Below, one piece after another: positions 3,268 to 38,668 of a stretch of DNA of 64,000 bases (position 1 is its first letter; each line of letters begins with the position of its first letter). The notes under the pieces were generated by a model that saw nothing but the letters and a program-made list of their open reading frames with translations, was not told the origin of the DNA and did not search any database. A program made the translations under genes and the position numbers. Origin of the DNA: a virus; the IMG/VR virus record IMGVR_UViG_3300027917_002335, positions 1 through 64,000 of that record; one strand, written 5' to 3'.

Positions 3268-4253
3268 CTTTTATATATTTCTTTTGCCTGAAAGTCTAAA
3301 TCAACAGGCATTCCATGTGATAATTGAGAACAATTACCACAAATTTCATGTGTTTTTCTTAATTTATTTATATGGAATTCTTGATAAAATCTCATTTCAT
3401 CTCCATTCCAAATTTCTTTTACTGATTGTTTATTTACATCTCCTATCTGTAATTCTCTTGCCCAATCAATAAAGCAAGCGCTTACAATACCGTCAGAATT
3501 AATTGACATTTGATAGAAGACATATGGACATACTTCTACTTCATGTATTGGTTGACCATATATTCCAACTTCTTCATTCTGAGGAGGACCATCAAAATTA
3601 TACCAACAATTCATAGTGTGTTCAATGGCTATGCCATCACATATATCTCCAAAGATTTCAAAGAACTTATCTTTCTCTTCTTCATATAAGAAATCACCAT
3701 TAATCTTAATAAATATTTCTAATTGTTTCCTATTCTCGTATAGGTATTTAATATTATTTACTAGTCTATCAAAGTTAATTCTCTTATTAGCAAACTCTAA
3801 ATATTGATCTCCATTTACGCCTTCGATTGAAATGTTAATTCTATCTAAACCTGCTTCCACAATATCTAAACTGGTTTTAGGATTTAACAATGAACCATTT
3901 GTAGTTGTATCTACCGCATTACAGCAACCGCTGAGTTTGGCGTACTTTACCATATCTGCAAACCGTGGATTTGCTAACGGTTCTCCGTGTAAATATAACC
4001 GTAATACTTTTATTGGCTTTTCAAATTCACAAATGTCATCTACAATCTTTTTAAACAGGTCAAATTTCATAAAGGTTTGTGGTCTTCCAACATCATTTAA
4101 TAATGATTTATCTCCAGATGGACAAAACCTACATCTGAAATTACACCAATCGCAAGGATCTACAAATATAACCCAAGGAGTATTAAGAGGAATATTATCT
4201 GCCAATGACTCTCTATTTTCTAATTGAATTCTTGTTTTTATTTTAGCTTTCAT
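3255..4253 (-). CDS. Radical SAM/SPASM-domain protein (glycan-cluster type)
   Basis: CNFRCRFC, GEPL, TTNG, C-terminal CPYVF..INSDGIVSAC..CGNC. Confidence 0.9.
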   Translation of the reverse strand: MKAKIKTRIQLENRESLADNIPLNTPWVIFVDPCDWCNFRCRFCPSGDKSLLNDVGRPQTFMKFDLFKKIVDDICEFEKPIKVLRLYLHGEPLANPRFADMVKYAKLSGCCNAVDTTTNGSLLNPKTSLDIVEAGLDRINISIEGVNGDQYLEFANKRINFDRLVNNIKYLYENRKQLEIFIKINGDFLYEEEKDKFFEIFGDICDGIAIEHTMNCWYNFDGPPQNEEVGIYGQPIHEVEVCPYVFYQMSINSDGIVSACFIDWARELQIGDVNKQSVKEIWNGDEMRFYQEFHINKLRKTHEICGNCSQLSHGMPVDLDFQAKEIYKRWLK

Positions 4254-11950: not shown

Positions 11951-13789
11951 TTATCCTACTCCTCTTTGGAGGTTTCTACTTCCTAGGTCAGGTATTTCGT
12001 CGTCAGCTAAATATATATCTTCTTGTTCCCACACTGATTGATCTGACCTTTTAATATAAAGTTCTTTTTGTCTCCATACATTTGGATGTTTCATTATCTC
12101 ATACTCAATACGAGAATAAATAACATTATCTCCAGTTTCTAAAGATTCAAGATAACTTTCAATATTAGCTATTACATCTTCTCTTACTGTAGCAAAATCT
12201 GATAATTCAGTTACATAGATAATACCTTTAATATCTATATCAATTTCTTCTGACTCTAATATTTGGTATTGAATTCCTACTGGACTATATCCTCCGCCAT
12301 CAATATAATCCAATTGACCATCTAACACATCTTTTAGATTCTCAAAACCAAATCCGTCTTCTGGAGATAAAATAACTGTGTAACCAGCACCATTATACCA
12401 ATTTTTAAACATTAAATGTATTCCAGTTGGTTGTTCTTGTGCAACGCCAGACACATATTTATATAAACTATATCTTGAATCTCCTCCACCATAACTTTCA
12501 AGACTTGTTCTAATTTCCCAATAATTTGTAGCAAAGTCTATACCAGTTACACCATCCTCTGGAGGATGACACCATAAATCAAATCTATAAGTTTTAGTTT
12601 TATCCAATCCATTATACTTTAGGTCAAAGTTAATATCTTGAAATCCTGTGAGTCCTGGAATTAAATCAATTTCTTCTATTAAAGTTTCGTCTAAATGTAA
12701 ACCAGTTTGCACAGTGTTTAATCTAATACCACATTTTATTCCTGGTGGTGCATTAACAGCTCTTCCACTTAATGTTATTCTACCTAATGAAAGAACTAAA
12801 TCACCTGGCACAAAAGATTGGCTCCATATTAAACCGTAAGAATCAACTCTTTTCACTGTACCAGTAGTAGGAGAATCCCAATTGAGAACTGAAGTTTGGT
12901 CAACGCCTTTATCTTGATAAACTTTTACTGCTCTGACTCCCTCTATATTTGAAGCTAAATCTTTAACTTTTGCTAAAGTAAATGTTCTATATCTTGCTTC
13001 TAACTGTCTTGCTCTGTAAACATCATCAGATTCTTTATCTGTTCCAGATGTTATATCTTCACTGTTTGTAACAGTTAAGAATGAATATGTAACGCTATTT
13101 GTTATTTCTCCAACTTTTGCATTGCTAACAGCACCAGAAGCAACAGAAGTAACCTCAACCCTTCTTGTAACTTGTCCTTCAACTTCTACATAATATCCTT
13201 CATTCTCAATTATATAACCAGAACTAGCATCGAGCCAATGAATGTTATTGTGATAAGTTTCATCAAACTCCCAAACACTTTCTGGTATTACAGTCAGGTT
13301 TTCTTTTAGAACTTGAACTACGCTTTGGGCATAAGGATAATCACTTGAAAAATAATCATAAGATTCTCCAGTTTTACTTTTAGTTCCTTGAATTCTATAT
13401 GGAATATAAGAATCTTCATCTGCCAAATAAGAATTAAGAGATGACCTAAATTCTGCTCCTTGTGCAATTAAAATTGGTGCTCCATTTATTGTTGCTGTAC
13501 AATCGACATATCCTTCAGCATGTGTAGCACCTCTTCGAGGCATTCCATTTTCTATTCCATGTTTATCAAGCCAAGTACCAACAGCTTGTCTTATAGACAT
13601 TTGTTCTGCTGCTGTTTCTAAAAGTGTTTCATAATAAAATTCGTCAAGGCTGTGAATCTTCATTTGTTGCCAAAGCCAAGAACTAGGAGTAAAGTTAACT
13701 ACATCCATTATATCTTTTGCTTTTTCTTCATAGTCTTCTATAATTTCTTTTGCGCTTCTTGGAGTAAATCCATCATCATTATACGGCAT
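11951..13789 (-). CDS. Baseplate J-like wedge protein with internal insertions
   Basis: AVGTWLD, GTDKESDDVYRAR, IEGVRAVKVY, LETGDNVIYSRI. Confidence 0.88.
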   Translation of the reverse strand: MPYNDDGFTPRSAKEIIEDYEEKAKDIMDVVNFTPSSWLWQQMKIHSLDEFYYETLLETAAEQMSIRQAVGTWLDKHGIENGMPRRGATHAEGYVDCTATINGAPILIAQGAEFRSSLNSYLADEDSYIPYRIQGTKSKTGESYDYFSSDYPYAQSVVQVLKENLTVIPESVWEFDETYHNNIHWLDASSGYIIENEGYYVEVEGQVTRRVEVTSVASGAVSNAKVGEITNSVTYSFLTVTNSEDITSGTDKESDDVYRARQLEARYRTFTLAKVKDLASNIEGVRAVKVYQDKGVDQTSVLNWDSPTTGTVKRVDSYGLIWSQSFVPGDLVLSLGRITLSGRAVNAPPGIKCGIRLNTVQTGLHLDETLIEEIDLIPGLTGFQDINFDLKYNGLDKTKTYRFDLWCHPPEDGVTGIDFATNYWEIRTSLESYGGGDSRYSLYKYVSGVAQEQPTGIHLMFKNWYNGAGYTVILSPEDGFGFENLKDVLDGQLDYIDGGGYSPVGIQYQILESEEIDIDIKGIIYVTELSDFATVREDVIANIESYLESLETGDNVIYSRIEYEIMKHPNVWRQKELYIKRSDQSVWEQEDIYLADDEIPDLGSRNLQRGVG

Positions 13790-14156
13790 TTGGTATTCCC
13801 TCTTCTAATAATACTATATCTCCTAATTTTGATTGAACTGCAACTTTAATATGTAATTGCTGACCATCCCGCCAAGCCTCAATTGAGTCTATCGCAAAAA
13901 TTAATCTTTCTTTTGCTGGATCGAGAGCATCGGCTAATAAGCTCTTTATAACTTCTGTTGGTGCACCGCCACTGTTCATTCTTACCGCAGAACGCAAATC
14001 AAATCCATAGTATAAATTCCATATTTCAGAACCAGTTTGAGTGTTTAACAGATTGTCTATAATTTGATAAAATGCATAATTGTCTTCTATTTCTATGTAA
14101 TCTCCATCCTCCATAATTGGATCACCAGTTCGGAGGTCTAACAGAATTCCAGGCAT
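13779..14156 (-). CDS. Baseplate gp25/gpW-like wedge protein
   Basis: LNTQTGSEIWNLYYGFD motif; directly upstream of baseplate J. Confidence 0.75.
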   Translation of the reverse strand: MPGILLDLRTGDPIMEDGDYIEIEDNYAFYQIIDNLLNTQTGSEIWNLYYGFDLRSAVRMNSGGAPTEVIKSLLADALDPAKERLIFAIDSIEAWRDGQQLHIKVAVQSKLGDIVLLEEGIPNAV

Positions 14157-14202
14157 TTTTTACCATTCCTCACATTTGTCATTTTTTTTCCTTCCTTAAC
14201 CT

Positions 14203-14227
14203 TATATTGTTTTTAAAGTTTATAAAG
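14203..14227 (-). promoter_or_regulatory. Late promoter copy 1 (CTTTATAAACTTTAAAAACAATATA)
   Basis: 25-nt motif with TATA box shared with 33911-33935 and 45858-45882; upstream of the baseplate genes. Confidence 0.75.
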
Positions 14228-14903
14228 TTATGTATTTTTTTATTTTTGTTTTAGTATCCATGTGTTTAATACTTCTCATAACATTCCACAATTCTTTATA
14301 TACATCAAAAGGAACATCAATAAAATCAGCAATCTTCTTCATTTCTGTATCAAAATCATTCATTAAATCGTGGAAGTTAATTCTTAAAACCAATTCTTTA
14401 GGATACTCAGCCAAAAACTCTTCTTCTTTCTTTTCTTTTAACACATTCCAAAATACAACAGTTTTATAATCTTTTGGTACAAAACCAAATTCATCTATAA
14501 AAATTTGCTGAAATGCTTTTGATTTTGAAACCAGATTCTTCCATAATCCATCTTCCCATATTTTTATATGAGAATTTATTCTTTCCATTAAAGGTCTATC
14601 CAATTTTATTATCTTACTATTTGGATATATTTTTATAAATTCTTTAATAAGAAAGATTAATTCTGGACATTTACATATTTCCCATTTATATTTTGGTATA
14701 ATTTTATCCATGTTAATTTTAGGGTATTTGAACCATAAATTCATTCTAACTTCTGGTGGTTCAGAATCGTGTGTATGTAACGACCATAAACCCCAATTAA
14801 GTAATCCTGTTAATAAGAGACATTTATGAACTAAACTTGTTGCTGCTCTACTACCTAATATAATTATCTTATCCTTCCTTAAATTTCTTGTCCATTTAGT
14901 CAA
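14220..14903 (-). CDS. Sulfotransferase-family protein
   Basis: ILGSRAATSLV, KCPE, YPNSKIIKLDR..SH, INFHDL..KKIADFI. Confidence 0.7.
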   Translation of the reverse strand: MTKWTRNLRKDKIIILGSRAATSLVHKCLLLTGLLNWGLWSLHTHDSEPPEVRMNLWFKYPKINMDKIIPKYKWEICKCPELIFLIKEFIKIYPNSKIIKLDRPLMERINSHIKIWEDGLWKNLVSKSKAFQQIFIDEFGFVPKDYKTVVFWNVLKEKKEEEFLAEYPKELVLRINFHDLMNDFDTEMKKIADFIDVPFDVYKELWNVMRSIKHMDTKTKIKKYITL

Positions 14904-15597
14904 TTAACAAACTCATCTCTGTAATAAAATTTTGTATAAATTCGGCGCTATCAAAATCTTGTATTAATTCGTCTAAACCTACAACATCAGTGTCTATGTC
15001 ACCAAACACATAATTGTCTATTCCTTGCCTTCCCATCACATTAACTCTATAAGCATGATATTCATTATCTGGTAATATTGTTTTCATCATTTCTCTATCT
15101 ACATGAAAAAATATATCACTATGAACAGCCATAATCTTATTTGGTATTCCGTTATCAATTACCCACCCAAATAGTTTATCATTTTGTGTTTTTAATCCAT
15201 AGGCTTTATCTTCTACTCCTAAGACAGCATCTTTTCTTATAAGTATATCACAAGGAATACTATAATGTTTTTCAAGAGTATTTTTAACAGCTTGAAAACC
15301 TAATCCTTTCCCCTTTCTATGGAAAACAGCCCAAGAGAAATTCATAGGTTGGTATATCATCGTTTCTGCTTTTATATTTGGAGTATTTATGACATAGGCA
15401 TCATAAGAACCTGCTTGGAAGGTGCTGTTTTTACATTTAAATATTATTGGTTTTGTATGCCATTGATTATAACTAAATCTACCTATTAAATGGCTATCTT
15501 CATAACCAGCTCCAGTTCTTATTCCACTCATTACATTTTTTATTTCAAATAAATCAAAAAATACATCCTGTTGCGATTCGTTTATTTTAACTCTCAT
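14896..15597 (-). CDS. Divergent lipoate-protein-ligase (LplA/BPL fold)-like protein
   Basis: IYQPMNFSWAVF, DKLFG (cf. KISG), HSDIFFHVD (cf. HGTLL..D), VVGLDEL; lacks RRxSGGG. Confidence 0.5.
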   Translation of the reverse strand: MRVKINESQQDVFFDLFEIKNVMSGIRTGAGYEDSHLIGRFSYNQWHTKPIIFKCKNSTFQAGSYDAYVINTPNIKAETMIYQPMNFSWAVFHRKGKGLGFQAVKNTLEKHYSIPCDILIRKDAVLGVEDKAYGLKTQNDKLFGWVIDNGIPNKIMAVHSDIFFHVDREMMKTILPDNEYHAYRVNVMGRQGIDNYVFGDIDTDVVGLDELIQDFDSAEFIQNFITEMSLLID

Positions 15598-16188
15598 TTA
15601 TTTTCACAATATTTTCTTCATTAAGGTAATTTTTCCAATCACCTATTATTCCTTTTCTACTACAAGGTATTAAACCTATGCTTTCCATAGGCTTAAATCT
15701 TTCACAAACCTTATTTATTTCTTCATCAGTTTTGTGAACATTAAGAAAATTCAACACTTTCTTTATTGTATCATTTAAATTATTCCACATATCTTCATAA
15801 TGAATTAACAAATAGTTAGGATGTTTAAATTCATTATACATTTTCCATTGTGTAACTGTGAAATCAAATAATTGCTTGTCTTCTGATATCTTTCTATTCA
15901 TAAAACTTTCATCTCTTTCCATCTCTACACTATAAATGTACCATATTTTAGATACAAATATATCTTTTAATTCTCTGGTTAAAGAGATTACCTTTGCAAA
16001 TTCACATAAATCTTTTGGATTAACCCAATGACATCTAACTCTTTTGTGCTCTTCTAATAACTTTTTTATATTATCTGGATTTTGTTCTCTTACTGTGATA
16101 GGAATAAATTTAAATTTTAATAAAGATCTTAATATATGGTTTAACCAATTAGAACCGACTCTCATTTGTGTTGATATTATATATTCCA
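15587..16188 (-). CDS. Sulfotransferase domain protein
   Basis: QMRVGSNWL, RELKDIFVS, IHYEDM, RKGIIGDWKNYL; start likely ATG 16188. Confidence 0.88.
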
Positions 16189-16191
16189 TTA

Positions 16192-16617
16192 CTATGCTCC
16201 ATATAATATTTCTCTTATTGCATCTATTCTTGCTTGGCATTCTTCCAAATTTTCAACATTACAATCGTGGCAGAGTATATTTAATTCATTCAATCTTGTA
16301 TGAGTTTCATCGTCTAAACCCATAACAATTGTATATCCACAATCATTAAACCAGTCTTCATCTTCCCTATTTCTTACTTGTGGGAAATCTCTACATATAT
16401 CTGGTCTATTTTCATATATATTACATACCGCCAATCCTTCAGCATCAAAACTTAAGTGTTCACAAGGTTTTCTTGTGCCACCAAGTTCTGGTCTTTTATC
16501 TAAGAAATAACAACACTTACCACATCTTTTACAACTTCCTGTTATGATAAATGGATTATTATCTTTAACCATATCATAAAATTCTTGTATTTTTAAAGGA
16601 CATTCTTTTATCGGCAA
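16192..16617 (-). CDS. YkgJ-family cysteine cluster protein
   Basis: CKRCGKCC, CEHL, CNIYENRPDICRDFP. Confidence 0.85.
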   Translation of the reverse strand: MPIKECPLKIQEFYDMVKDNNPFIITGSCKRCGKCCYFLDKRPELGGTRKPCEHLSFDAEGLAVCNIYENRPDICRDFPQVRNREDEDWFNDCGYTIVMGLDDETHTRLNELNILCHDCNVENLEECQARIDAIREILYGA

Positions 16618-17048
16618 TTTTGTAATATATCCTCTATTAATTCTATTCTTAATTTACAAGCTTCTTGATATTTTTGAGTTGGACAGAAATAACATTTTAA
16701 ATTTAATCTGTCTAATGCTTCTTGTTTTTCTAATTCAATATTTGCTCTAAATGTATAACCACAATCTTTATACCACTCTTTATCTTCTTCTGTTTTGTAT
16801 GGTAAAACTGGATGATCTTTACAATTCTGTGGTCTTGTTTTATATATTAAACACACCGCTGTATTACCATCATATCTAAGAAACTCACAAGGTACTCTTT
16901 CTCTTGTTTCCCTATTTATTATAAAATGACAACATTTACCACATCTATTACACTGTCCTTCTCTCATAAATGGATTATTATCTCTTACCATTTCATAATG
17001 TTTTTGTGGATCTACTTCCAATCCATTTCTTAATTTCATTAACACCAT
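16608..17048 (-). CDS. YkgJ-family cysteine cluster protein (tandem paralogue)
   Basis: CNRCGKCC, CEFL, CLIYKTRPQNCKDHP; shares DNNPF and DCGYT with its neighbour. Confidence 0.85.
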   Translation of the reverse strand: MVLMKLRNGLEVDPQKHYEMVRDNNPFMREGQCNRCGKCCHFIINRETRERVPCEFLRYDGNTAVCLIYKTRPQNCKDHPVLPYKTEEDKEWYKDCGYTFRANIELEKQEALDRLNLKCYFCPTQKYQEACKLRIELIEDILQNCR

Positions 17049-17998
17049 TAGTTATACTCACAACTACACACTTTATCACAGCTACATTCATTGTAACAAT
17101 CACAATCATCATCACAGGTACAATCTGTATTACATCCACAGCCTTGTGATTGACAGGTACATTGATTTTCACAACTACAGTAACCATATTTATTACAACT
17201 ACAATCTAAGCATGTCATCCAACAAACATAATTTAAATCACAGCCACAGTCGGTATTACACCCACAACCTTGAGCTTCGCAAGTACATGCTTCTGTGTTA
17301 CAATCACACTCATTACCACAACTACTATAATATGTGTTGCAGTCACAGTCATTGCCACAATCATTGTCACATAAACATCCTTCGTCTTCGCAAGTACATT
17401 GTGATTCACAGGTACATTGGAATTCACAGGTACATACTAAAGCACAGTGACCAGAACATCCACATATATCTATATTACACGCACAGGAATAATCGTCACA
17501 ACCACAGACAGTATCACATCCACAACCTTCTGCTTGACAGGTACATTGAGCCTCACAATTACAGTAACCAAAACAAGTACAATCGTCATCACAACCACAT
17601 ACCAAATCACAAGAACAGCTGTAAGTTTGACTATATGTATCGCAATCACATTGAGCTACCAGATTATCTATATCAGCATCAATCTCATTTATGTTAACGG
17701 CAGTAATCTCATCACCTGCATCGTGATCACCTGAAGATGCCGTAAGAGACAATGTTGTTCCTGTTTTAGTTGTATCTCCTGCGTCACGATCACCATCTGC
17801 TTCACAATAACAATGATGAGCATTAATAAGAGAATTCTGAGAAATCATATCTTTAAATTTTTGACCCAAAATTTCAGCATCAGCACTGACACTACCTATA
17901 TCGGTGAGTCCAACTCCCCTACCATTTTCCTCGTTGTTAATTTTAGTGATAATTGCGTTAATATCACTGGCAGTTATTTCGTTGTCTTGGGTTACCAT
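17048..17998 (-). CDS. Cys-rich CxC-repeat protein, putative rSAM substrate or virion appendage
   Basis: About 61 Cys; 27 CxC units in the C-terminal ~200 aa; N-terminal EITAxxINxI repeats. Confidence 0.75.
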   Translation of the reverse strand: MVTQDNEITASDINAIITKINNEENGRGVGLTDIGSVSADAEILGQKFKDMISQNSLINAHHCYCEADGDRDAGDTTKTGTTLSLTASSGDHDAGDEITAVNINEIDADIDNLVAQCDCDTYSQTYSCSCDLVCGCDDDCTCFGYCNCEAQCTCQAEGCGCDTVCGCDDYSCACNIDICGCSGHCALVCTCEFQCTCESQCTCEDEGCLCDNDCGNDCDCNTYYSSCGNECDCNTEACTCEAQGCGCNTDCGCDLNYVCWMTCLDCSCNKYGYCSCENQCTCQSQGCGCNTDCTCDDDCDCYNECSCDKVCSCEYN

Positions 17999-19067
17999 CG
18001 CTAATATTATATTTGCGTTTTAATTCTTCTATTGCTCTTGATAATTCAGTAAACATTATATTGTATTTTGCGTTTTGATAATACACAGTATTGCTTGTTT
18101 GAATATTTGTGGCAGGACACCACATAAACCATGGAATTTTAAATCCTTTTTGTAAATCTGTAATTGAAGAATACATTTTTTCTTCTTCTTTCAATCTCGA
18201 ATAAGAATTATACTGTTTGTAATTTTTGAATTCTTTTGGCTTATATACATTACCTAATTTATAATTTTCTCTTTCTGGTACAGTTGCTAAACGATGACAA
18301 GGATATATATCAAAATTTTCATCAATTGCTAATAAACTAGTACCAGCACCGCAAGACGCACCAATTCTGTTAAATAAAGACGATAATGTTGTAATCTTTT
18401 CTTTATATGTGAAATCTGGAAGTTTCATAATCATTTCTGTAAATTTATAGAACTGTTCAATAATAATATCTACATCCTTATCATCCCAATCTTCTTCAAA
18501 TATAACTTGAATTGTGTTTTGTCTTAGATGTTTTGTAGCTTCTTCCTTACTTTGTAACCTATATATTTTAAAAAACCAAAATAAAGATTCTGCTAAATAA
18601 GGTAATGTTTCTTTTGTGCAAACTCCGTGAATAGACCAAGGAACTTTATGCTTAATACAAGCAGATATTCCTTTTATAATATCATCAAAAGTTCCTCTTC
18701 CATTTGCATACTTTCTATTAATATCATTAACATGTCTTGGTCCATCGACACTTATTTGCATGTGTAAACCAAGTTCTTTAATCTTTTCTATATATTTAGG
18801 AATAAGAACGCCGTTTGTTATAAGATTCTCTTTAATAAGTTTTTTCTTATGTTCATCTGCAGTTTCTAATATCTTTTCTAATAATTCCAATCGTAATAAT
18901 GGTTCACCACCAAAAGGAAAGAACGCTGTAAAACAACCTTCTTCAACATATTTTCTAAATTTTTCAACATCCATATTTCCATTATATTTATGTTCAAAGC
19001 AATATTTACACCTTAAATTACATTTACCTGTAAGCATTACATCTGGACAATTAATATGAAACATCAT
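17964..19067 (-). CDS. Radical SAM/SPASM maturase (anSME/ranthipeptide-maturase-like)
   Basis: CNLRCKYC, FGGEPLL, TNG, ISVDGP, R....GRGTFD, SCGAG...IYPCHR, WCPA. Confidence 0.9.
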   Translation of the reverse strand: MMFHINCPDVMLTGKCNLRCKYCFEHKYNGNMDVEKFRKYVEEGCFTAFFPFGGEPLLRLELLEKILETADEHKKKLIKENLITNGVLIPKYIEKIKELGLHMQISVDGPRHVNDINRKYANGRGTFDDIIKGISACIKHKVPWSIHGVCTKETLPYLAESLFWFFKIYRLQSKEEATKHLRQNTIQVIFEEDWDDKDVDIIIEQFYKFTEMIMKLPDFTYKEKITTLSSLFNRIGASCGAGTSLLAIDENFDIYPCHRLATVPERENYKLGNVYKPKEFKNYKQYNSYSRLKEEEKMYSSITDLQKGFKIPWFMWCPATNIQTSNTVYYQNAKYNIMFTELSRAIEELKRKYNISDGNPRQRNNCQ

Positions 19068-19969
19068 TTTAATATACCTCCTATAAATTTTGTTATATAA
19101 GCCTCTTCAACAAAATTACCCATTATTTTCTTATTCTGATAGAAATCTGTAAGACCATCAAAATCCTTTTTCATATCTATATAACTTCTAAGAATGTTAA
19201 GCTCTTTAAAGGGAACTTCATTTCCATTGTGTTTATAGTGTTTTGCTAAGTCAAACAACATATCTCCTTCTTCAAACGCTTGTTTAGTCACATATAATTT
19301 GAAATCTCTTGATACGAATATTGTCTTCCCTTTTCTTCTATAATACATCATTGGTTGCTTATTCTTTTTATTCTTCTTATCCATAGAACTTATTTTCCAT
19401 ATATTTAACTGGCGCAACCAAAATTCTAATTTGTGTAATTCTTCAATTGTCATTTTATCAAAGGATTCATAATCAAAATTTATTTTAAAGAATCTATAAC
19501 CAAGTTTCATATAGATTTCTATAATCTTTATAACTGACTCTTCAAAGTTGTCGTAATTAATATTGGTTTCAATCCATAAAGGATTAGACCGTGTCCAAGA
19601 TAAGAATGATTCTATAATGTGTAAATCAAATCTGTTTATTTCTATGTCGTCTGTTGTTGTTATACTAAACCTTTTATTTTTTATTGGTTTGCTTCTATCA
19701 AAAAATGTTTCTAATAAATCTGGCTTAATAAGCAAATTAAAATTTGTCATTTCACACATATAATTTTCTGCAGCCAATTTTACAAATACATCTATTTCTT
19801 CAAAAGTTTTAACAGGAAGATTAATTATAACTTGTTTCGTTAGAGTTATTGTGTCTTTCTTTAAACATTCTGTAAATGTTTTGAAGTTTTCGAATTCTAT
19901 TTCTTTAAAGGCGTTTAGTATATCTTTAGAATTAAATAAATCCTTAATAAAAAGTTGTCTTTCTATCAT
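19064..19969 (-). CDS. Degenerate rSAM-fold-like partner protein (no CxxxCxxC)
   Basis: NINYDNFEES..IYMKLGYRFFKINFD and TIFVSRDFKLY echo rSAM/SPASM segments without the Cys ligands; coupled to the rSAM gene. Confidence 0.4.
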   Translation of the reverse strand: MIERQLFIKDLFNSKDILNAFKEIEFENFKTFTECLKKDTITLTKQVIINLPVKTFEEIDVFVKLAAENYMCEMTNFNLLIKPDLLETFFDRSKPIKNKRFSITTTDDIEINRFDLHIIESFLSWTRSNPLWIETNINYDNFEESVIKIIEIYMKLGYRFFKINFDYESFDKMTIEELHKLEFWLRQLNIWKISSMDKKNKKNKQPMMYYRRKGKTIFVSRDFKLYVTKQAFEEGDMLFDLAKHYKHNGNEVPFKELNILRSYIDMKKDFDGLTDFYQNKKIMGNFVEEAYITKFIGGILK

Positions 19970-21141
19970 AATACTTTAACCCAATGTCTATCGTTAACCC
20001 AAACACCTCGGGTTTTAATTTTTGTTTCTTTAAACATATATTTAGCAATTGCTTTTTGCATAATAATCTCTTCTTTTGTTGCTTTAGTTAACCATCCTTT
20101 TTCATTTGGAACTAATAAGTCTCCTGCTTCATATACTTCGTCAACATGAGCTAATAAGAAACCACCAATTGAAATTGGAACGGCTCTTTGTTTAGAACCA
20201 ACAGCATGTCCATAAGTATCAGAACAAATACCAATACAAGCCTTGTCAGCTCTTTTACTAGTTATCCTCAATCCTTTCTTATTAAGAGAATAACAATATC
20301 CTGGTAATTTTGAAACACCTACTTCGGCTTTCCAATAATCTGCGTAGTCGTTATATACTGCGTTATAAACTCTGGTTGCATAGAAATAACCATCATAATT
20401 TAATCTTGTGGTGTTTGTTGGGTCAGTTGAACCAGCATATAAATATGCGCTAGTTTTAGTTGTTCCAGCAATTTTTAATATTCCACTTAAATCAAGTGTG
20501 CCTTCTGCCTCAACAGCACTTACTGCTTCTGAATCAGCATATCTTACATGATGAGCACTTGTTGGAGCATCACTTAAATTTGCGTGTGCTCTTGTTGCTA
20601 AATCAGCTAAACTTGAGCCTGTCTTATCTAAATCGCTCCAAGGTAAACTACCAAAATGAACACCTGAAGCAGTTGTTAAGGCGTGAGAAGATGGTGCAAA
20701 TTCAGATGGTTTATTTGCTAAGTCTCCCCAATTTAAATAACCTGCATTAAAATCATCACCATCTGCTTTCAACACAAGACCAGATGTATAAGCAATGTTA
20801 CCTACATCTGATAAATCTGTTAAAGAGCCAACAACTCCTCCTCCTCCACCATACAGAGAAAACCAAAGACCAGAAGCTTGATGCCATCCATAAATACCAG
20901 AAGCATCTATTCTTATTTTATTATGATTATATAATCCAATTTCTACTTTTTGAACACCGCCATTAGCTCCACCCAATCTCCAATATGGATCAAGAGTAGA
21001 AATATGACTTCCATAGTCTATTGTTTTCCAATTAGGATCAATATAATTACCAGAAGCATATCCACCTAAGAACAATCCAACCCATACCATTGGATTTGCT
21101 TCATTGAATCGGCTTCCGCCTTTAATATAAAATGTTGACAT
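19966..21141 (-). CDS. Tail fibre with C-terminal intramolecular chaperone (peptidase G2-like)
   Basis: LTDLSDV, WGDLANKPSEFAPSSH fibre motifs; YNDYADYW...IGICSD...VPISIGG...GDLLV. Confidence 0.75.
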   Translation of the reverse strand: MSTFYIKGGSRFNEANPMVWVGLFLGGYASGNYIDPNWKTIDYGSHISTLDPYWRLGGANGGVQKVEIGLYNHNKIRIDASGIYGWHQASGLWFSLYGGGGGVVGSLTDLSDVGNIAYTSGLVLKADGDDFNAGYLNWGDLANKPSEFAPSSHALTTASGVHFGSLPWSDLDKTGSSLADLATRAHANLSDAPTSAHHVRYADSEAVSAVEAEGTLDLSGILKIAGTTKTSAYLYAGSTDPTNTTRLNYDGYFYATRVYNAVYNDYADYWKAEVGVSKLPGYCYSLNKKGLRITSKRADKACIGICSDTYGHAVGSKQRAVPISIGGFLLAHVDEVYEAGDLLVPNEKGWLTKATKEEIIMQKAIAKYMFKETKIKTRGVWVNDRHWVKVL

Positions 21142-23028
21142 TTAATCCGCTTCCGTTTTTAATGTTCCTTCTAATGAATTTGTTGGTGGTGGTACTGTGA
21201 TACCTAAGTTTCCTATATTATGAGTGTGAATAAAGTGAGCTAGTTTCTTTCCTCCACCAGCAATATTTACAGCTCCAGCATTTGCTCCTATGTTAACTAT
21301 TCCGCCTGTATTTATGTTTATTGTTCCGTTTACTATTCCTCCAACCCCATCTCCAGTCTCTATATCAATTGTGGTTCCTGCTTTATTTGTCTTTATTTTT
21401 ATTGCGCTTTCAGCATATATTTCTACAAATCCTGCATCATTACGACAAATAAATTGATATCGTCCTGGACCATCACCTTGATCGTTAGTGCGAGGATCGA
21501 GAAAGAAACATCCTCCTTGTAAGAGATACATTCTTGAAATATTAGTTTGTAACATAAAATCTCCTCCAAGAAAATACATATGATTTACATCAGATAATCC
21601 TAAATGATCACATTTCTCATCTGGAGGAGTTATCTTTTGTTTATAAACTATTCCATGCTCAGATTCAATTATCCAATTCTTATTTTCTTGGTCAAAATAA
21701 ATATCTCCTTCTGGAAGTTTGAGTCTAAAATCTTTTGCATCTTTTATTGGTACTACAAATTCTTCCTTTCCGTTTCCAAATACAAAAGGACCTTGAACAG
21801 TGTTTTCTATTCTATCATCTGGCATTAACATTATAAAGTTTGCTGGATCATCAGGCACTGGGAATTGTATTCCTTCTCCACTACCAAGATATGGAGTTGT
21901 TCTATCAACTTTATATAAGACATAAGAAGGATCTGTTACATTTAGAACTCTTCTTCTTGGAACTTTTTTTGTTAATTCATTCCTGTCTTTTTCATAAGTT
22001 ATTCTTTCAATATATCGTTGATCATAATTTGTTTCATCGTCATCAAGATAATCTTCAACAACCGAACCTACTTTTATTTGTTTGAATAATTTCTTTCGAG
22101 AAAATCTTGTATATGCTTCAGAAATTTCTCTTTTTCCTTCTAAACTATCAAGATAAATATCTTTTGTTATTTTTTCTCCTATTGGTACAAAACAACCTAC
22201 TGTTTTATCACCATTTGCTCCGACTTCATGTCTAACCCAAACACATCGAAGTTCAGTCATATTTTGTCCTTCTCTGAATTGGTAATAATAAGGAACATCA
22301 AGTGGCATTCCATGTGAATAAATCTTAACAGTATGTGGAGTTTTTACAATTTTAATAACTTCTTTTGAGTCAATCATATCAGTTGCATTAAGTTCTTCAT
22401 AAGTCCATAATTCTGGACCAACAAATAAGATACCATTCTTAACTGTCCATTCTAAAGCATTTTCTTCTGTAACATAATCAATAAAATCATAAACTGTCCA
22501 ATCTTCTTCAAATGCAAAGTTTGGATACTCAAATAAAGTTGTTTTCTTTTCTTCTTCAAAATGTTCTTGAAAAACTACTGGTAATAAACCACTTTTTTGT
22601 AAAACTTCATATAATAATGTTTTTATATTCCTTGTTTCATCATAAGGAAGAGCATAAGTTTGTGACATATATACTGCTGTTCTTAATAAAGCATATTCTT
22701 CTTGAACAGCAAACAAAACTTTTCTTGAAGAATTGTAATCATCATAAACTGTTACAACTCTATATTGATCTTGATGATATATTTCGTCTTTATCACCAAC
22801 AAGATATAATCTTAAATCTAAAGAATATTTTGAGAAATCATAACTTTCCATATCTTGATGAACATACCAAAGCATGAAGTCTGGTATTCCATACATACCG
22901 CTAAATACTACTATATCGTCGTGATATCTACCGTCAGCATTATCAAAGCTACCAACAAATGTTAGACTTTCATCATCTGTATCAAATGGAGAATAAAATC
23001 TTATTGCCCATCTCGCTAGTTGTGGCAT
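21142..23028 (-). CDS. Fused baseplate hub and central spike (gp27/gp5, VgrG-like)
   Basis: Hub-like N-terminal half, beta-helical C-terminal half, terminal HxH (HFIHTH) metal-binding tip. Confidence 0.7.
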   Translation of the reverse strand: MPQLARWAIRFYSPFDTDDESLTFVGSFDNADGRYHDDIVVFSGMYGIPDFMLWYVHQDMESYDFSKYSLDLRLYLVGDKDEIYHQDQYRVVTVYDDYNSSRKVLFAVQEEYALLRTAVYMSQTYALPYDETRNIKTLLYEVLQKSGLLPVVFQEHFEEEKKTTLFEYPNFAFEEDWTVYDFIDYVTEENALEWTVKNGILFVGPELWTYEELNATDMIDSKEVIKIVKTPHTVKIYSHGMPLDVPYYYQFREGQNMTELRCVWVRHEVGANGDKTVGCFVPIGEKITKDIYLDSLEGKREISEAYTRFSRKKLFKQIKVGSVVEDYLDDDETNYDQRYIERITYEKDRNELTKKVPRRRVLNVTDPSYVLYKVDRTTPYLGSGEGIQFPVPDDPANFIMLMPDDRIENTVQGPFVFGNGKEEFVVPIKDAKDFRLKLPEGDIYFDQENKNWIIESEHGIVYKQKITPPDEKCDHLGLSDVNHMYFLGGDFMLQTNISRMYLLQGGCFFLDPRTNDQGDGPGRYQFICRNDAGFVEIYAESAIKIKTNKAGTTIDIETGDGVGGIVNGTININTGGIVNIGANAGAVNIAGGGKKLAHFIHTHNIGNLGITVPPPTNSLEGTLKTEAD

Positions 23029-35090: not shown

Positions 35091-35418
35091 TAATTTTCAT
35101 TTGATCTATTTGGTTCAATATCCAATGTGTTTTCTTTAATAATACCTTTTTTGTTTCCTTTATTGTTTCAATTATATCTTGGTAAAAGTTTTTCTCTATT
35201 ACATCATAGAAGTATGAAATTGTTTCATCATACAACGATTCTAACTTATTAGATAATAACCTTAAATCGGTATGGTTAATATAATTACATCCAATTAATG
35301 CTTCATCAATTTCTTTGTAGAAATTAATTTTATTTATCTTTTCTTTGTTGATTATATGCCACAAGTCGTCCTCTAGCGCCTGCTTGATTTTGCATAGGAG
35401 ACGATTGTTTGATTTCAT
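35083..35418 (-). CDS. Hypothetical helical protein
   Basis: In-operon ORF overlapping the portal 3' end. Confidence 0.5.
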   Translation of the reverse strand: MKSNNRLLCKIKQALEDDLWHIINKEKINKINFYKEIDEALIGCNYINHTDLRLLSNKLESLYDETISYFYDVIEKNFYQDIIETIKETKKVLLKKTHWILNQIDQMKING

Positions 35419-36790
35419 CTTTTTTCAAATCCTCATAGGTTTTGTTTTCGCCATCTGGTAATTTATTCAAAAATGGAAAAGAGCTTTGTGCCGCTTTTCT
35501 TGCTTCATTTATATCCTTAAAAACATGTGAATTAACACCTGTTTCTATTGCTTTCATTAAATCTAATGTTTCTTCAAATATTAAATTGCTCCATTCTACA
35601 TCTATATCAGTTGGCTCTATTTCTTTAATTCCATGATAGGGTAATAAAACATTTGCATAAAAATCTGTTAATAATAATTCATATTGTCTTCGTATACCAG
35701 ATATAAATCTCAACCATCCTTTTTCCAATATTCTGGATGTTGCTAATTCATTTCCAGTAGCATCTCTCTGACCCATTGAGCCAAAGATTGTATACATTAT
35801 TTGTTTATCTAATTCTTTTATGTATGTTACATATATTTCGGAACTTCTTGAAGTTTGTTTCTCCAAAGTTTCGAAAGTATAATCTCCAGGAACTGCTGCT
35901 CCTCCAAATGATGTTATTTGTTTAACAAATAGACTAGCATTATCTATTGCTTTTTGCATTTCTTGTGGACTAGTAGGATAAGTACTAGTTCTTGGATCTC
36001 CAATTTTTATTATTACAAAAGGAGCCCAATGCTTTTGCGAATATTTTCTCATAAACCAAAGAATCCATCTTTTATATACAATGTAGTGCATCGCATTAGC
36101 GATGGGTGGTTTTTCGAAGAAATCACCATATAATACATTGTGTAGTTCGTCTGGTATATGTATTTTGTTTGCAATGTTGTCTCTTTGTCTAAAGTCATTG
36201 CCGTAATTAATTGATTTAGAGTCCCATTTTTTCCAGTCATGCTCATTATCCTTACCTGCCTGTCTGTAAAACTGTTTCTTTGTCCTATAGTAACTAAAGT
36301 TACCAACATGTTGAATAAATTTCCGGTATCCCATTACAGGATCTTCTCTTATTTCAATTGATTTAGGATCTAGTCGCTGAACATCTACATTATTATATTC
36401 TGGTGTCCTGTCATCAACTCTCCACATAAACTGTTTATGAATAATTGCGTCAAACCAACTATCTCTTATAAAGTCTTCAACTGTTTGTCTTTTAACATTG
36501 ATTCTCCTATTCCAGTCATCTATAATCTTTTTAGCATTATCATTTTTATCAAGTCTTATTCGCAAACCATCGCCAATGATGACATGTGCCGTTATATCTG
36601 TAAAACTGGTTGATATCGAGTCATTCCAAAAAGCCTCTTCAAGATTCATGTCATTCATTTTAATCATAACCTTTTTAAGGTTCTTGAGATCTTTGTCTAA
36701 CTCATACTCATCGGCCGCTATATTTGCTACAACAGCCTTATGGCTTGGTAAGTATTCAGGTTTATTCTCCTTTTCTCTCCTTATCGGCAT
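35330..36790 (-). CDS. Portal protein
   Basis: Follows TerL; LDPKSIEIRED, APFVIIKIG, GNELATSR, DINEARK; start likely ATG 36790. Confidence 0.85.
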   Translation of the reverse strand: MPIRREKENKPEYLPSHKAVVANIAADEYELDKDLKNLKKVMIKMNDMNLEEAFWNDSISTSFTDITAHVIIGDGLRIRLDKNDNAKKIIDDWNRRINVKRQTVEDFIRDSWFDAIIHKQFMWRVDDRTPEYNNVDVQRLDPKSIEIREDPVMGYRKFIQHVGNFSYYRTKKQFYRQAGKDNEHDWKKWDSKSINYGNDFRQRDNIANKIHIPDELHNVLYGDFFEKPPIANAMHYIVYKRWILWFMRKYSQKHWAPFVIIKIGDPRTSTYPTSPQEMQKAIDNASLFVKQITSFGGAAVPGDYTFETLEKQTSRSSEIYVTYIKELDKQIMYTIFGSMGQRDATGNELATSRILEKGWLRFISGIRRQYELLLTDFYANVLLPYHGIKEIEPTDIDVEWSNLIFEETLDLMKAIETGVNSHVFKDINEARKAAQSSFPFLNKLPDGENKTYEDLKKDEIKQSSPMQNQAGARGRLVAYNQQRKDK

Positions 36791-36992
36791 CCGAAAAACC
36801 ACCCATAAATCTTTTTATTTCATCAAACAATACATCAAATGGATTTTCGCCTGGAGGAACTTCAACAACCCTAACTTTAAATTTAGGTCTTTCAGGCTCT
36901 ACCGCTATGCATGGCATACCATCAACCCATACGATTTTTGTTTTATCTAATTTATTTAATTCTTCCTCAGTTAATTCTTTTTCTTTTTCCAT
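36762..36992 (-). CDS. Small hypothetical protein
   Basis: ORF between TerL and portal. Confidence 0.5.
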   Translation of the reverse strand: MEKEKELTEEELNKLDKTKIVWVDGMPCIAVEPERPKFKVRVVEVPPGENPFDVLFDEIKRFMGGFSDADKERKGE

Positions 36993-38668
36993 TATCTTAC
37001 ACCATATATATCAAAACTTAAGCCTCTTGGCTTAACTTGATGAACAATAATAGGTTTTTGTCTGTGACCCCATAAACTAAGAGCAAATGCAATAACTCTA
37101 TCATCGTGAAATGATTGAGTTCCGTATTTAATATAATCAGTTCCTGGCATCACTTCTGCTTCAAATCTTAAGCATTCCTCCCTAAATTCTCCAATTTCTG
37201 GTTCACTAGCTGGAGGTATTTCAATTAATCCTTTTGAAAACATCTTAATTACTTCTCCTATTAGATCAGGTTTATTTGCACGGGAAATTATAAATCCTCG
37301 TGAATTCATTTTATTGTCAAAAATTTTAGTATTAATATCTTTATCAGTTCTAAGTATATACTTCTTCCCATCCTCTTTAAATACCAATATTTTTTCTCTT
37401 TGTAAAGTTTTTATGTCATCTTCGAATAATTCTACAAGAGGATCTCCCAATCCTGTGGCGTCCAGGACTGCTAAATATGGATTAAATTTTTCAACGACCA
37501 TCATTAATTTTCTTCGAATATATTTATAAGTTCTTCTTAAGTCATTGTCACCTGCAACTGATAAAGCATAATCAAGAATAACATGACCAGTCTTTTTATC
37601 TCTATGTGTTACATAAAAACAAGAAGCATCATGTTTTCTACCATAATCTACACCTAATACATAAGCCTCTTTTTCATAAGAAACAAATGCATTTCTTAAT
37701 TTTTGATTTGTACAATTTGTAAGCCACTGTCCTAAGATAACCATTGAGGCATCTGAGACAATTTCTCCTAAATATTCTTGTCTTCCCCATGGAGTCCAAC
37801 CGTCATCATCTAATAAATCTTTTACATCAGCAGGATCTCTTAAACCATCATTCCAAGGATCAACCCAAGGAACTGAGAATCTTCCTATTCCGTATTTGTA
37901 ATCTAAAGCACCACAATCAACACAAGGATACATTTCGTCTAGTGGCATTCTTCCATTTGGAAAATTATCAACATTAAATGCAGATTGATGGTATTCTGAA
38001 CCACAATTGTTACAAATTATTGGTCTTGTTTCTAAACCTCTATAATAATAATCAATGAATTTTCCTTTTGGACCGTATGGAGTTGATAACATTATCCAAC
38101 GCTCTCCGTGAGTGGTTGTTGGCAATGCTGCTGCGAATAAGATCTCTTCTTCTATTTGGGCTGCTTCGTCGGCAAACAGAAATGTATATGTCGACCCCCG
38201 AATGTTGTCGGTGCATGGCCATACTTCTATATAATTCCCGTTGGCGATCTCTAAGAAATCTACTCTTAATGATTTCTGAACGACATATTTCCAAAATATT
38301 GAAAACCTCAAAATTGCTTTAATTTTACGATATAATTTCTTTGCTGCTTTATCTGATGCTGATATAATTCCAATTGTACAATTTGGAAACATTAATAAGA
38401 AAGCACAAGCAGCATAAGCACAAGCACTGGTTTTTCCAGTTTGTCTTGGCCAAATCATTACAGATCCTTTAGGGATTCTTTTTGCATCACTAAATTTATA
38501 TTGTGATAGAGGAAATCCAAATTGAATTGAATCAATTGCATCTTTTTGAGCCTGAGTTAATCTACATTTATGACCAGAATGATAAATATCTGGTAAGAAT
38601 TCTTCTATAAAATCAACGGCTCTAAATGCAACATCTTGAAGATGTTGGATTTCTTCTGCACTAATCAC
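36992..38668 (-). CDS. terL: Terminase large subunit
   Basis: Walker A PRQTGKT, Walker B LFADEAA, coupling motif LSTP, nuclease LGVDYG and HDDRVIAFAL. Confidence 0.95.
   Translation of the reverse strand: MISAEEIQHLQDVAFRAVDFIEEFLPDIYHSGHKCRLTQAQKDAIDSIQFGFPLSQYKFSDAKRIPKGSVMIWPRQTGKTSACAYAACAFLLMFPNCTIGIISASDKAAKKLYRKIKAILRFSIFWKYVVQKSLRVDFLEIANGNYIEVWPCTDNIRGSTYTFLFADEAAQIEEEILFAAALPTTTHGERWIMLSTPYGPKGKFIDYYYRGLETRPIICNNCGSEYHQSAFNVDNFPNGRMPLDEMYPCVDCGALDYKYGIGRFSVPWVDPWNDGLRDPADVKDLLDDDGWTPWGRQEYLGEIVSDASMVILGQWLTNCTNQKLRNAFVSYEKEAYVLGVDYGRKHDASCFYVTHRDKKTGHVILDYALSVAGDNDLRRTYKYIRRKLMMVVEKFNPYLAVLDATGLGDPLVELFEDDIKTLQREKILVFKEDGKKYILRTDKDINTKIFDNKMNSRGFIISRANKPDLIGEVIKMFSKGLIEIPPASEPEIGEFREECLRFEAEVMPGTDYIKYGTQSFHDDRVIAFALSLWGHRQKPIIVHQVKPRGLSFDIYGVR

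Follow-up and report, generated by a model that had tools for sequence, protein, structure and literature searches.

A Cys-hexad protein beside a radical-SAM enzyme among the tail genes of a marine-sediment phage: a candidate for covalent stapling

Described systems and the paired locus

In PapA (freyrasin), repeated Cys-X3-Asp units are closed into rings by thioether bonds from sulfur to C-beta, and the NxxcB/NxxcA pair is reportedly a beta-thioether system with an N-x-x-C register. Among phage structures, the tip of T4 gp37 and spikes of the P2 gpV type are trimeric and metal-stitched by way of HxH repeats. A case in which a whole protein is modified comes from Methanococcus voltae, where CrpC, a radical S-adenosylmethionine (SAM)/SPASM enzyme, installs ranthionine thioether links in the protein CrpA, as seen by mass spectrometry (Dieter et al. 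2026, PMC13692751). CrpA is composed of an N-terminal domain, which aids engagement, and ten 17-residue Cys repeats with C-x-x-Q/D, and the AlphaFold model of its Cys region is of low confidence (PMC13692751). CrpC carries a RiPP recognition element (RRE; RiPP, a peptide made on ribosomes and modified after translation) together with a complete SPASM domain holding two auxiliary clusters, and phages are not mentioned in that paper (PMC13692751). We analysed a stretch of viral DNA of 64,000 nucleotides (positions 1 to 64,000 of the IMG/VR record IMGVR_UViG_3300027917_002335; hereafter the window), in which an open reading frame (ORF) on the minus strand, 17048-17998, encodes a 316-residue protein with 61 Cys beside the gene of a radical-SAM enzyme. 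Our favoured reading, which we hold to be fairly probable, is that the phage's own radical-SAM enzyme covalently staples this tail-associated Cys-hexad protein through thioether links. We found no publication on phage tail proteins of this radical-SAM/Cys-repeat kind.

The phage pair resembles CrpC/CrpA in that an enzyme would act on a whole protein made of a conserved N-terminal domain (N-domain) and a C-terminal Cys array with C-x-x-Q/D registers, and in that the Cys region yields a low-confidence model. It differs in the enzyme, which is RRE-less, has one auxiliary Cys set and is accompanied by a separate cluster-less partner; in the repeat, which is a CxC hexad and not a unit of 17 residues; and in the setting, which is a phage tail module with YkgJ-type and sulfotransferase accessory genes. 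An earlier note on this DNA had proposed that the Cys-repeat protein is cross-linked by radical-SAM thioether chemistry, for which CrpC/CrpA provides an experimental precedent (PMC13692751).

The pairing of the two genes was examined by searching related loci with the module proteins of the window using tblastn (L-numbers denote loci; L013 and L002 are the same as L001 and L003, respectively, and profiles confirmed L001 and L003). Wherever a locus includes upstream DNA, the gene immediately before the Cys-rich homologue is that of the radical-SAM enzyme (L001, L003, L004, L005, L007, L009, L010, L011, L012, L015 and L018). A reverse search of viral contigs with the enzyme alignment recovered five close loci (E ≤ 5e-59), two of which were new (L029 and L030), and in all five a family protein is found directly downstream of the enzyme, bringing the pairing to 13 of 13 non-redundant loci besides the window. 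In the window itself, the last 35 nucleotides of the radical-SAM gene are shared with the beginning of the Cys-rich gene. Because the radical-SAM gene adjoins in all 13 loci and the genes overlap, the view that the 316-residue protein is the substrate of the adjacent enzyme is strongly supported, and we consider it highly probable.

Cys hexads, enzyme and partner

By script count, the 316-residue protein holds 28 CxC units, of which one is the lone CYCE at residues 63-66 and 27 fall within residues 117-313; neighbouring units are spaced by 6 residues 13 times and by 7 residues seven times, with a few longer spacings. The arrangement was compared with 20,000 shuffles of the 200-residue Cys domain, 30% of which is Cys. 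The 27 observed CxC units (shuffle mean 17.0) were reached in 10 shuffles, whereas neither the complete absence of CC dipeptides (shuffle mean 17.1) nor the 33 occurrences of Cys at i and i+6 (shuffle mean 16.7) was matched in any. The residue right after CxC, which is position 4 of the hexad, is D nine times, E eight times, N six times and Q twice, with F, S and Y once each; D/E/N/Q thus follow CxC in 25 of 28 units of the whole protein and in 24 of 27 units of the Cys domain, as against a share of 0.43 among non-Cys residues (binomial p = 7.5e-7). These counts confirm the earlier note in its 27 units with a period of about six residues, its 24 of 27 polar residues after CxC, its lone CYCE and its two copies of EITAxxINxI (EITASDINAI at residues 7-16 and EITAVNINEI at residues 97-106). 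The protein is highly acidic (59 D+E against 8 K+R; net charge about -51; almost no Lys) and ends in ...CSCEYN. It had no match in Pfam, NCBIfam or PHROG (Pfam and NCBIfam tried to E ≤ 10), and the profile of its family matched no PDB sequence at E ≤ 1.

Searches of metagenomes brought up 13 relatives of the Cys-rich protein with a word-indexed search and 43 with an exhaustive search of representatives. Three parts are common to all of them: the N-domain, a Cys-repeat array of variable length and a conserved end, CxC[DN]xVCxCE[YF][N/GG]. The hexads of 42 homologues share the consensus C-[TSG]-C-[NDEQ]-[TSGA]-[DNVQ], and position 4 is D/E/N/Q in 429 of 506 units (85%), with N the commonest residue (146/506), as against 36% of the other non-Cys residues of the domain and 14-51% at the positions neighbouring it. 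The polar residue after CxC is therefore conserved in homologues as a class, as the earlier note had asked of its relatives; the preference it described is strong, and only its "strict" phasing was overstated. In some members Asn stands in place of the second Cys (CSNNTD, CTNQ...), the first Cys being kept and position 4 staying polar, which suggests that these last two residues form the essential pair. Because D/E/N/Q occupy position 4 in 89% of the window protein's units, in 85% of those of the 42 homologues and in 95% of those of the largest relative (L005), against a background of 36-43%, we infer that the side chain at this position is the acceptor. The register N-x-x-C of NxxcB/NxxcA, with the acceptor Asn three before Cys, is present in every hexad with N at position 4; the phage family differs in that D, E and Q occur there as often as N does, and in its host and setting.

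Similar hexads occur in bacteria. In a scan of the genome collection, hexad runs (…VCTCETVCTCDNECSCDAVCTCEAV…) were found at loci of metagenome-assembled genomes (MAGs) from Lachnospiraceae, Clostridiales, Oscillospiraceae, Coriobacteriia, Anaerosomatales and Desulfococcaceae (Table 1). The proteins have C-T-C-[EDN]-x-V hexads behind other N-termini (a twin-arginine translocation signal with a lipobox, or another domain), and their genes adjoin one to three radical-SAM/SPASM maturases of 440-470 residues whose best profile is PapB, which is indicative that the C-x-C-[D/E/N]-x-x hexad is tied to this enzyme neighbourhood in cells and phages. No curated family matched the bacterial hexad proteins; their ends, GGGGHYWYPT/C or YCSCVPVH, are conserved.

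The same array has also been considered as a metal-thiolate element, in which the CxC hexads would be binding sites for Zn, Fe, Cu or Fe-S, in the manner of a metallothionein or, as a trimer, of the HxH iron sites along the T4 gp37 needle, and the enzyme would have another target or a minor role. CxC is the classic metallothionein motif, and this account is favoured by the high Cys content without CC pairs, the nearly invariant H-C-Y-C-E in the folded N-domain, the two YkgJ-type "zinc- or iron-chelating" proteins encoded after the Cys-rich gene and the failure of AlphaFold2 to find an apo fold. HxH fibres and spikes, too, have an x-spaced two-ligand motif repeated along an elongated tail protein, and the present gene stands beside baseplate genes; the differences are that the ligand is Cys and not His and that a dedicated radical-SAM enzyme, which is missing from the HxH systems, is present here. 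Metal binding leaves unexplained why D/E/N/Q are retained at position 4, why an overlapping radical-SAM neighbour is invariable in 13 loci and why the same hexads stand by PapB-like maturases in bacteria. A net charge of this size with scarce Lys is unlike metallothioneins, no family of which matched the protein in Pfam or NCBIfam at E ≤ 10. We therefore regard a metal-thiolate element as unlikely.

The enzyme carries CNLRCKYC at residues 16-23 and an invariant GGEP at residues 53-56, and it scores 68.9 bits with PF04055 against a cut-off of 29.5, so that it belongs to the radical-SAM superfamily by its CX3CX2C, its GGE and its PF04055 score. With its cluster motif beginning at residue 16, the enzyme leaves no space for an RRE at the N-terminus. 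Beyond the SAM cluster, an alignment of nine sequences conserves only C137 (8/9), C239, C257 and C317, and in the same alignment the CX2CX5CX3C part of the seven-Cys SPASM motif is absent from the enzyme; we read the conserved set as a putative single auxiliary cluster in a Twitch-like or partial SPASM domain. The best NCBIfam profile is PapB (NF047865), with 131.3 bits over profile positions 6-305 of 330 for the window enzyme and 111.7 and 103.1 bits for homologues, all short of the family cut-off of 340. Next comes a Nif11-like peptide maturase, followed by DynA, CXXX-repeat maturase, CcpM, SCIFF, anSME and QhpD, all of them sub-cut-off. The closest solved relative by sequence is CteB (5wgg; E 1.5e-17), and then anSME. 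The earlier note had named QhpD, PapB and NxxcB as enzymes of this chemistry; the phage enzyme is not a canonical SPASM enzyme, as the full SPASM motif is lacking, and with a score below the PapB cut-off it falls outside the PapB family.

Other curated families fare no better. TIGR04463, the CrpC family, is not among the best 25 of the 64 NCBIfam families matched by the enzyme, and homologues score 49.6 bits with it against a cut-off of 525. The CXXX-repeat system is similar in that its enzyme, TIGR04115, is of similar length and RRE-less (the match covers enzyme residues 11-335 and profile positions 7-344 of 359) and in that CXXX Cys arrays lie beside remoter enzyme relatives in three phages (L072, L083 and L094); it differs in the score, 82.4 bits against a cut-off of 350, and in the repeat, which is CxCxxx here and not CXXX. 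The corresponding target model, TIGR04114 (18 positions, 20 bits), had no match in the virus at E ≤ 10. On sequence comparison, the enzyme is placed in the thioether-forming neighbourhood, outside all curated families.

The best profile of the enzyme, PapB, and its best solved relative, CteB, are both thioether-forming, and for this reason we read the modification as a thioether. PapB/PapA, the top profile with its substrate, is the closest chemical analogy for repeats of Cys with an acidic acceptor; the phage system differs in a score far below 340, in the missing full SPASM motif and in a substrate of 316-1120 residues with two Cys per 6-residue unit in place of a short secreted peptide. A thioether from Cys to the side chain of position 4 would be the best-supported chemistry, to which we give about an even chance. 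Conceivably, the same pairing could serve another chemistry, such as a sactionine (S to C-alpha), the conversion of Cys to formylglycine as by anSME, or another modification of Cys or acceptor. SkfB is a Twitch-type sactisynthase, which the single auxiliary cluster of the enzyme resembles; anSME and the sactisynthases SkfB, RumMC and StsB are among the NCBIfam/PDB matches of the enzyme, and the 15% of units in which position 4 is V, H, Y or F would agree with a C-alpha chemistry indifferent to the side chain. The strongest relatives, PapB and CteB, nevertheless form ranthionines, the selection of a polar residue at position 4 in 85-95% of units speaks for chemistry on the side chain, and the sulfatase-type motif C-x-P-x-R was not seen in the 316-residue sequence. 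Such other chemistry is, in our estimate, quite unlikely.

Adjoining the enzyme is a 301-residue protein without a family match in Pfam, NCBIfam or PHROGs. Its AlphaFold2 model (pLDDT, the score of the predicted local distance difference test, 81; predicted template modelling score, pTM, 0.80) has six beta-alpha units and a C-terminal part. Foldseek aligned the model with CteB (probability 1.00, E 2e-4), and VIA-align, with near full-length coverage, with TigE (Z 13.1) and CteB (Z 13.0), then ChlB, anSME, SkfB, BlsE and PqqE. The alignment of the 301-residue protein has no invariant Cys. A recognisable sequence paralogue of the enzyme was considered and rejected (hhalign probability 0.2%), the relation being visible at the fold level only. 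Homologues adjoin the enzyme in seven loci (L001, L003, L005, L010, L011, L012 and L018). Judging from the model, the 301-residue protein is probably a non-catalytic partner of the enzyme, and it may supply the substrate grip in place of the RRE.

Tail setting, N-domain and repeat number

The virus record is 99.5 kb long and rated complete by CheckV, and the DNA of the window occurs in marine-sediment metagenome runs, which are the only ones listed for it, may be its source and include no RNA data set; a megablast of 14000-23000 against the phage collection gave no match. On the minus strand, a late operon runs from the terminase and portal genes down to the gp25-like and Baseplate_J genes (Table 1), and with the latter two downstream the module is placed inside the tail/baseplate block. 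Eight tightly packed genes lie between the 391-residue tail protein and gp25, in the order 301-residue protein, radical-SAM enzyme, Cys-rich protein, two YkgJ/YcgN-type proteins, sulfotransferase, 233-residue protein and sulfotransferase. This position between a tail protein and gp25/J is kept in diverged phages, and the C-terminal domain of the 391-residue protein recurs directly upstream of the module in L005, L010 and L011 (tblastn). Compared with a RiPP precursor, which would have a leader, a short core and a leader peptidase and/or exporter, the protein has a conserved N-domain followed by a Cys region of the type that is modified, and its family has a "core" of 200-1000 residues; neither a protease nor an exporter or transporter was found among the module genes by the Pfam and NCBIfam scans.

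An N-domain hidden Markov model (HMM) weakly finds Cys-tailed proteins beside remoter radical-SAM genes (E 7e-5 to 8e-3 in a small database), which share a helix motif (…TITATDINLLKTAINDE…). In one of them, L085, a Peptidase_S74 domain (PF13884; 31.4 bits against a cut-off of 22) stands directly behind CxC hexads; a C-terminal PF13884 domain is absent from the 316-residue protein in the Pfam scan. The L085 domain is the best evidence that this wider group would consist of fibre-type tail proteins, a statement on the group and not on membership of the window protein. Three of these proteins (L085, L095 and L089) have an N-terminal Cys cluster (MACSG..C..C), two to three TITATDINLLKTAINDE-like helix motifs and a short array, CICNSDCSCNLVCSCHNDCGCNY; in L085 and L095, the Peptidase_S74 chaperone domain follows the array and begins with SDxRLKxNI. 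Around remoter enzyme relatives, 30 of 78 viral loci hold a Cys-dense ORF within 4 kb, with repeat types that differ (CxCxxR, CDCD, CXXX). Among them are large phage proteins with CXXX-type arrays (…CQSGCEVSCQSGCQVSCE…), one of 735 residues with 151 Cys, and proteins of about 500 residues that start with MALKEDDIKDLG, contain a Cys-dense stretch and lie directly downstream of enzyme relatives (L061, L062, L069, L088 and L096).

As the module has no protease or exporter, lies between tail and gp25/J genes and has distant S74-bearing relatives, we find it likely that the cross-linked product is part of the tail, which for the window protein is concluded from gene position. One may instead suppose a product outside the virion, namely a RiPP-like toxin, metal scavenger or host-manipulating factor, released or intracellular, with the N-domain as a long leader like NHLP or Nif11. 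In keeping with this, a Nif11-like peptide maturase is the second best NCBIfam match of the enzyme, the N-domain is the best conserved part of the protein and the N-domain of CrpA serves enzyme engagement (PMC13692751). Such a product is nevertheless difficult to reconcile with the lack of a protease, an exporter or a Gly-Gly-type cleavage site (none is present in the 316-residue protein), with the fixed place of the module between tail and baseplate genes in diverged phages, with family sizes up to 1120 residues and with distant relatives that end in a tail-fibre chaperone domain, and we think it very unlikely.

The accessory genes follow closely on the Cys-rich gene, whose stop shares one base with the ATG of the 146-residue YkgJ gene (TAATG). 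YkgJ homologues are found downstream of the Cys-rich gene in L001, L005, L008, L009 and L014, and these proteins would possibly act as electron donors or as handlers of the remaining thiols. The sulfotransferases of the accessory block match PF00685 (2.9e-14) and PF13469 (4.2e-9), and they may have a role in the module; the PDB sequence search with the 233-residue protein found nothing. Sulfotransferases adjoin the Cys-rich gene also in L006, L011 and L018, and in L018 the gene is inserted between the enzyme and the presumed substrate. In one branch of the family (L003 and L015), a second, shorter radical-SAM gene and a glycosyltransferase of family GT2 come after the Cys-rich gene, and in L011 a nitroreductase is encoded upstream, so the accessory set is variable. 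L018 (DAOVAG010000015.1, 11 kb) holds the full module of partner, enzyme, sulfotransferase and Cys-rich protein and was binned with a Candidatus Bathyarchaeota MAG; it may be a mis-binned viral contig or a pointer to an archaeal host.

Table 1. Positions of the module, its neighbours and related loci (window coordinates unless a locus is named; aa, amino acids)
Feature	Position	Strand	Remarks
Baseplate_J	11951-13789	-	PF04865 2.6e-16; PHROG 6 baseplate wedge 1.2e-44
gp25-like sheath initiator	13779-14156	-	PF10934 6e-6, below its cut-off
Second sulfotransferase	14220-14903	-	Accessory block 14220..16240
233-aa protein	14896-15597	-	Recurs in L006
Sulfotransferase	15587-16240	-	Accessory block 14220..16240
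Second YkgJ/YcgN-type CxxCxxCC protein, 141 aa	16192..16617	-	PF03692 22.7 bits vs cut-off 23; NCBIfam YcgN 1.5e-5
YkgJ/YcgN-type CxxCxxCC protein, 146 aa	16608..17048	-	Weak NCBIfam YcgN matches
Cys-repeat domain	17051..17650	-	Residues 117-316; 27 CxC units; C-terminal family motif CxC[DN]xVCxCE[YF]
N-terminal domain of Cys-rich protein	17651..17998	-	Residues 1-116; three helices, two EITAxxINxI helix starts, nearly invariant H-C-Y-C-E at 62-66
Radical-SAM enzyme, 367 aa	17964..19067	-	CX3CX2C at residues 16-23; one auxiliary-cluster Cys set C137, C239, C257, C317
Cluster-less radical-SAM/SPASM-fold protein, 301 aa	19064..19969	-	AlphaFold2 model with Foldseek and VIA-align
Upstream tail protein, 391 aa	19966..21141	-	Weak match to tail collar fibre 9d93, E 0.016
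Portal	35330-36802	-	
Terminase	36992-38668	-	
Largest Cys-rich relative, 1120 aa	L005:2441-5803	+	320 Cys
Cys-rich relative, 417 aa	L004:663-1916	+	97 Cys
Apparently split family gene	L011:3147-3626, 3635-3847		159 aa (N-domain, only 12 Cys) and 70 aa (ends ...CQCEWNT)
Sulfotransferases adjoining the Cys-rich gene	L006:593-1919; L011:3835-4548; L018:3762-4457		
Branch with second radical-SAM gene and GT2	L003:10304-11092; L015:2101-3054		
Nitroreductase	L011:485-1192		Upstream
Bacterial hexad protein, Lachnospiraceae	L019:1882-2454		
Bacterial hexad protein, Anaerosomatales	L020:7800-8285		
Bacterial hexad protein, Clostridiales	L021:7998-8450		
Bacterial hexad protein, Desulfococcaceae	L022:5727-6467		
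Bacterial hexad protein, Coriobacteriia	L024:7773-8258		
Bacterial hexad protein, Oscillospiraceae	L026:3767-4183		
Cys-tailed proteins found by N-domain HMM	L085:5119-5853; L095:6354-7181; L089:5076-5603		Peptidase_S74 in L085 and L095
Phage proteins with CXXX-type arrays	L083:1199-3406; L094:641-3970; L072:1985-2911; L084:1024-3744		Within 4 kb of enzyme relatives

In the AlphaFold2 model of the Cys-rich protein (42 sequences), residues 1-118 form a three-helix N-domain at pLDDT 90-97, with helices at residues 10-27, 45-60 and 100-116, and each EITAxxINxI copy precedes or begins a helix. The fibre-like N-terminus that the earlier note had suggested is therefore replaced by a compact domain modelled at pLDDT above 90. 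The family consensus of this part reads xITAxDINxIIxKINxE..R, then INxxHCYCE, then DIxxLxAQCxC; H62, C63 and C65 are invariant in family alignment A1, and identity to P0001 is 81% in the N-domain against 61% over the whole protein. When residues 1-118 were used as the query of a region search, all matches belonged to this family, and none had a different C-terminus. Structure searches with the N-domain gave nothing significant in the PDB (Foldseek, best E 1.9) or in BFVD (best E 0.035, to uncharacterised phage and rudivirus proteins), and the best VIA-align hit (Z 7.2) is within the noise of helical folds. ESM Atlas structure look-alikes, which we take as a lead only, are viral proteins of 256-643 residues with template modelling (TM) scores of 0.6-0.7, and their C-termini vary, with Ig domains and Pfam PF27846 among them; for PF27846 (tSAM_targ_Cxxx_rpt, "modification target Cys-rich repeat domain") the features score is 0.83 and the structure TM 0.62. 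On this lead the N-domain might be a swappable anchor. Taken with the distant S74-bearing relatives, the look-alikes make it plausible that the N-domain is a leader, a virion anchor or both.

The number of repeats is highly divergent within the family, ranging from 159 residues with 12 Cys in L011 through 417 residues with 97 Cys in L004 to 1120 residues with 320 Cys in L005; a range from 12 to 320 Cys between conserved ends is as expected of a spacer or fibre-like element. The L005 protein has 154 CxC units, and in 95% of these the next residue is D/E/N/Q; its acidic residues number 253 and its basic ones 12. Its array is a young 18-nucleotide repeat with a superperiod of 54 nucleotides (three hexads); the L004 array is likewise young, and the two loci come from one shared metagenome and have similar N-domains. 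In the window gene, Tandem Repeats Finder reported almost no repeat at the DNA level, which is indicative that the window array, unlike that of L005, is old and diverged. The family gene of L011 is apparently split in two (Table 1), which may be due to a frameshift or to faulty assembly, or may be a genuine two-gene arrangement. Matches of the 1120-residue homologue to ClfA, ClfB and SdrC were dismissed as low-complexity noise.

Radical-SAM enzymes are oxygen-sensitive as a class, which bears on a further account of the six-residue period, that of a disulfide-laddered beta-solenoid like the beetle antifreeze protein with Cys at every sixth position, folded oxidatively after release and with the enzyme unrelated. 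The six-residue period fits, as do the small residues at positions 2 and 5, and an 18-residue superperiod, seen in L004 and L005, would give three hexads per turn; the window protein lacks that superperiod, and we therefore dropped it as structural evidence for the window protein. AlphaFold2 did not produce a solenoid, the marine-sediment source and the radical-SAM enzymes of the phage speak for reducing conditions, under which disulfides cannot be counted on, and the enzyme pairing would go unexplained. We consider this account extremely improbable.

Weighing the stapling model and its meaning

Under covalent stapling, the three-helix N-domain would first dock the protein to the enzyme pair and at a later stage to the tail or baseplate, with the cluster-less 301-residue partner working with the enzyme and replacing the missing RRE. 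The enzyme would travel along the C-[TSG]-C-[NDEQ]-x-x hexads and, in each, abstract a hydrogen from the side chain of the Asp, Glu, Asn or Gln at position 4, whose acceptor carbon would then be joined to the sulfur of a neighbouring Cys; both C-x-x-[acceptor] and [acceptor]-x-x-C registers are offered in each hexad. The outcome would be a series of small ranthionine-type thioether rings, and the product a stapled, strongly polyanionic and redox-insensitive stretch on the tail of a phage of anoxic marine sediment, its length set by the number of repeats.

Several observations weigh against this reading. The Cys domain is without a confident model (pLDDT 32-46 by AlphaFold2), and for this reason a rigid rod is a conjecture, as are the up to about 27 macrocycles and the metal or disulfide role of the second Cys that the earlier note had put forward. 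About 15% of the homologue units carry V, H, Y or F at position 4, and since each acceptor comes with two Cys, half or more of the thiols must have a different fate. The enzyme scores below the cut-off of every curated family in NCBIfam and is without the second auxiliary cluster of PapB, CteB and CrpC. Incorporation into the virion would follow from gene position and from distant relatives found at the weak E-values given above for a small database. Metal binding, too, would be compatible with the CxC motifs and with the YkgJ Cys-cluster proteins encoded next to them. The four rival accounts are nonetheless less likely, mainly because they leave unexplained either the enzyme pairing or the selected polar position.

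Should stapling hold throughout the array, thioether rings would form a ladder, with about 25 of them in the window protein and up to about 150 in the 1120-residue relative, and give a stapled polyanionic tail fibre whose length is tuned by repeats and which redox conditions, and probably proteases, would not affect. Among the structural proteins of virions it would be the first to be cross-linked by an enzyme (RiPP-style), and the enzyme architecture would be new as well, an RRE-less radical-SAM enzyme with a single auxiliary cluster beside a cluster-less, paralogue-like partner. We rate this full picture as somewhat short of an even chance.

Thioether cross-linking by radical-SAM enzymes has hitherto been treated as a chemistry of small secreted peptides; it was first demonstrated on a full protein in September 2026, for a single case, CrpA of a methanogen (PMC13692751). 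The present family sets the same logic among the tail genes of viruses, and with a plausible purpose: in sulfidic, reducing sediment disulfides are unreliable, and thioethers would lock a host-contacting fibre permanently. With 12 to 320 Cys, its members form a natural series of substrates, and a minimal RRE-less enzyme with a pseudo-enzyme partner would be useful for learning how such enzymes grip long repeat substrates, with a possible route to enzymatically stapled protein materials. In essence, the hexads beside PapB-like maturases in secreted bacterial proteins hint at a class of cross-linked surface proteins that is broader and as yet uncurated.

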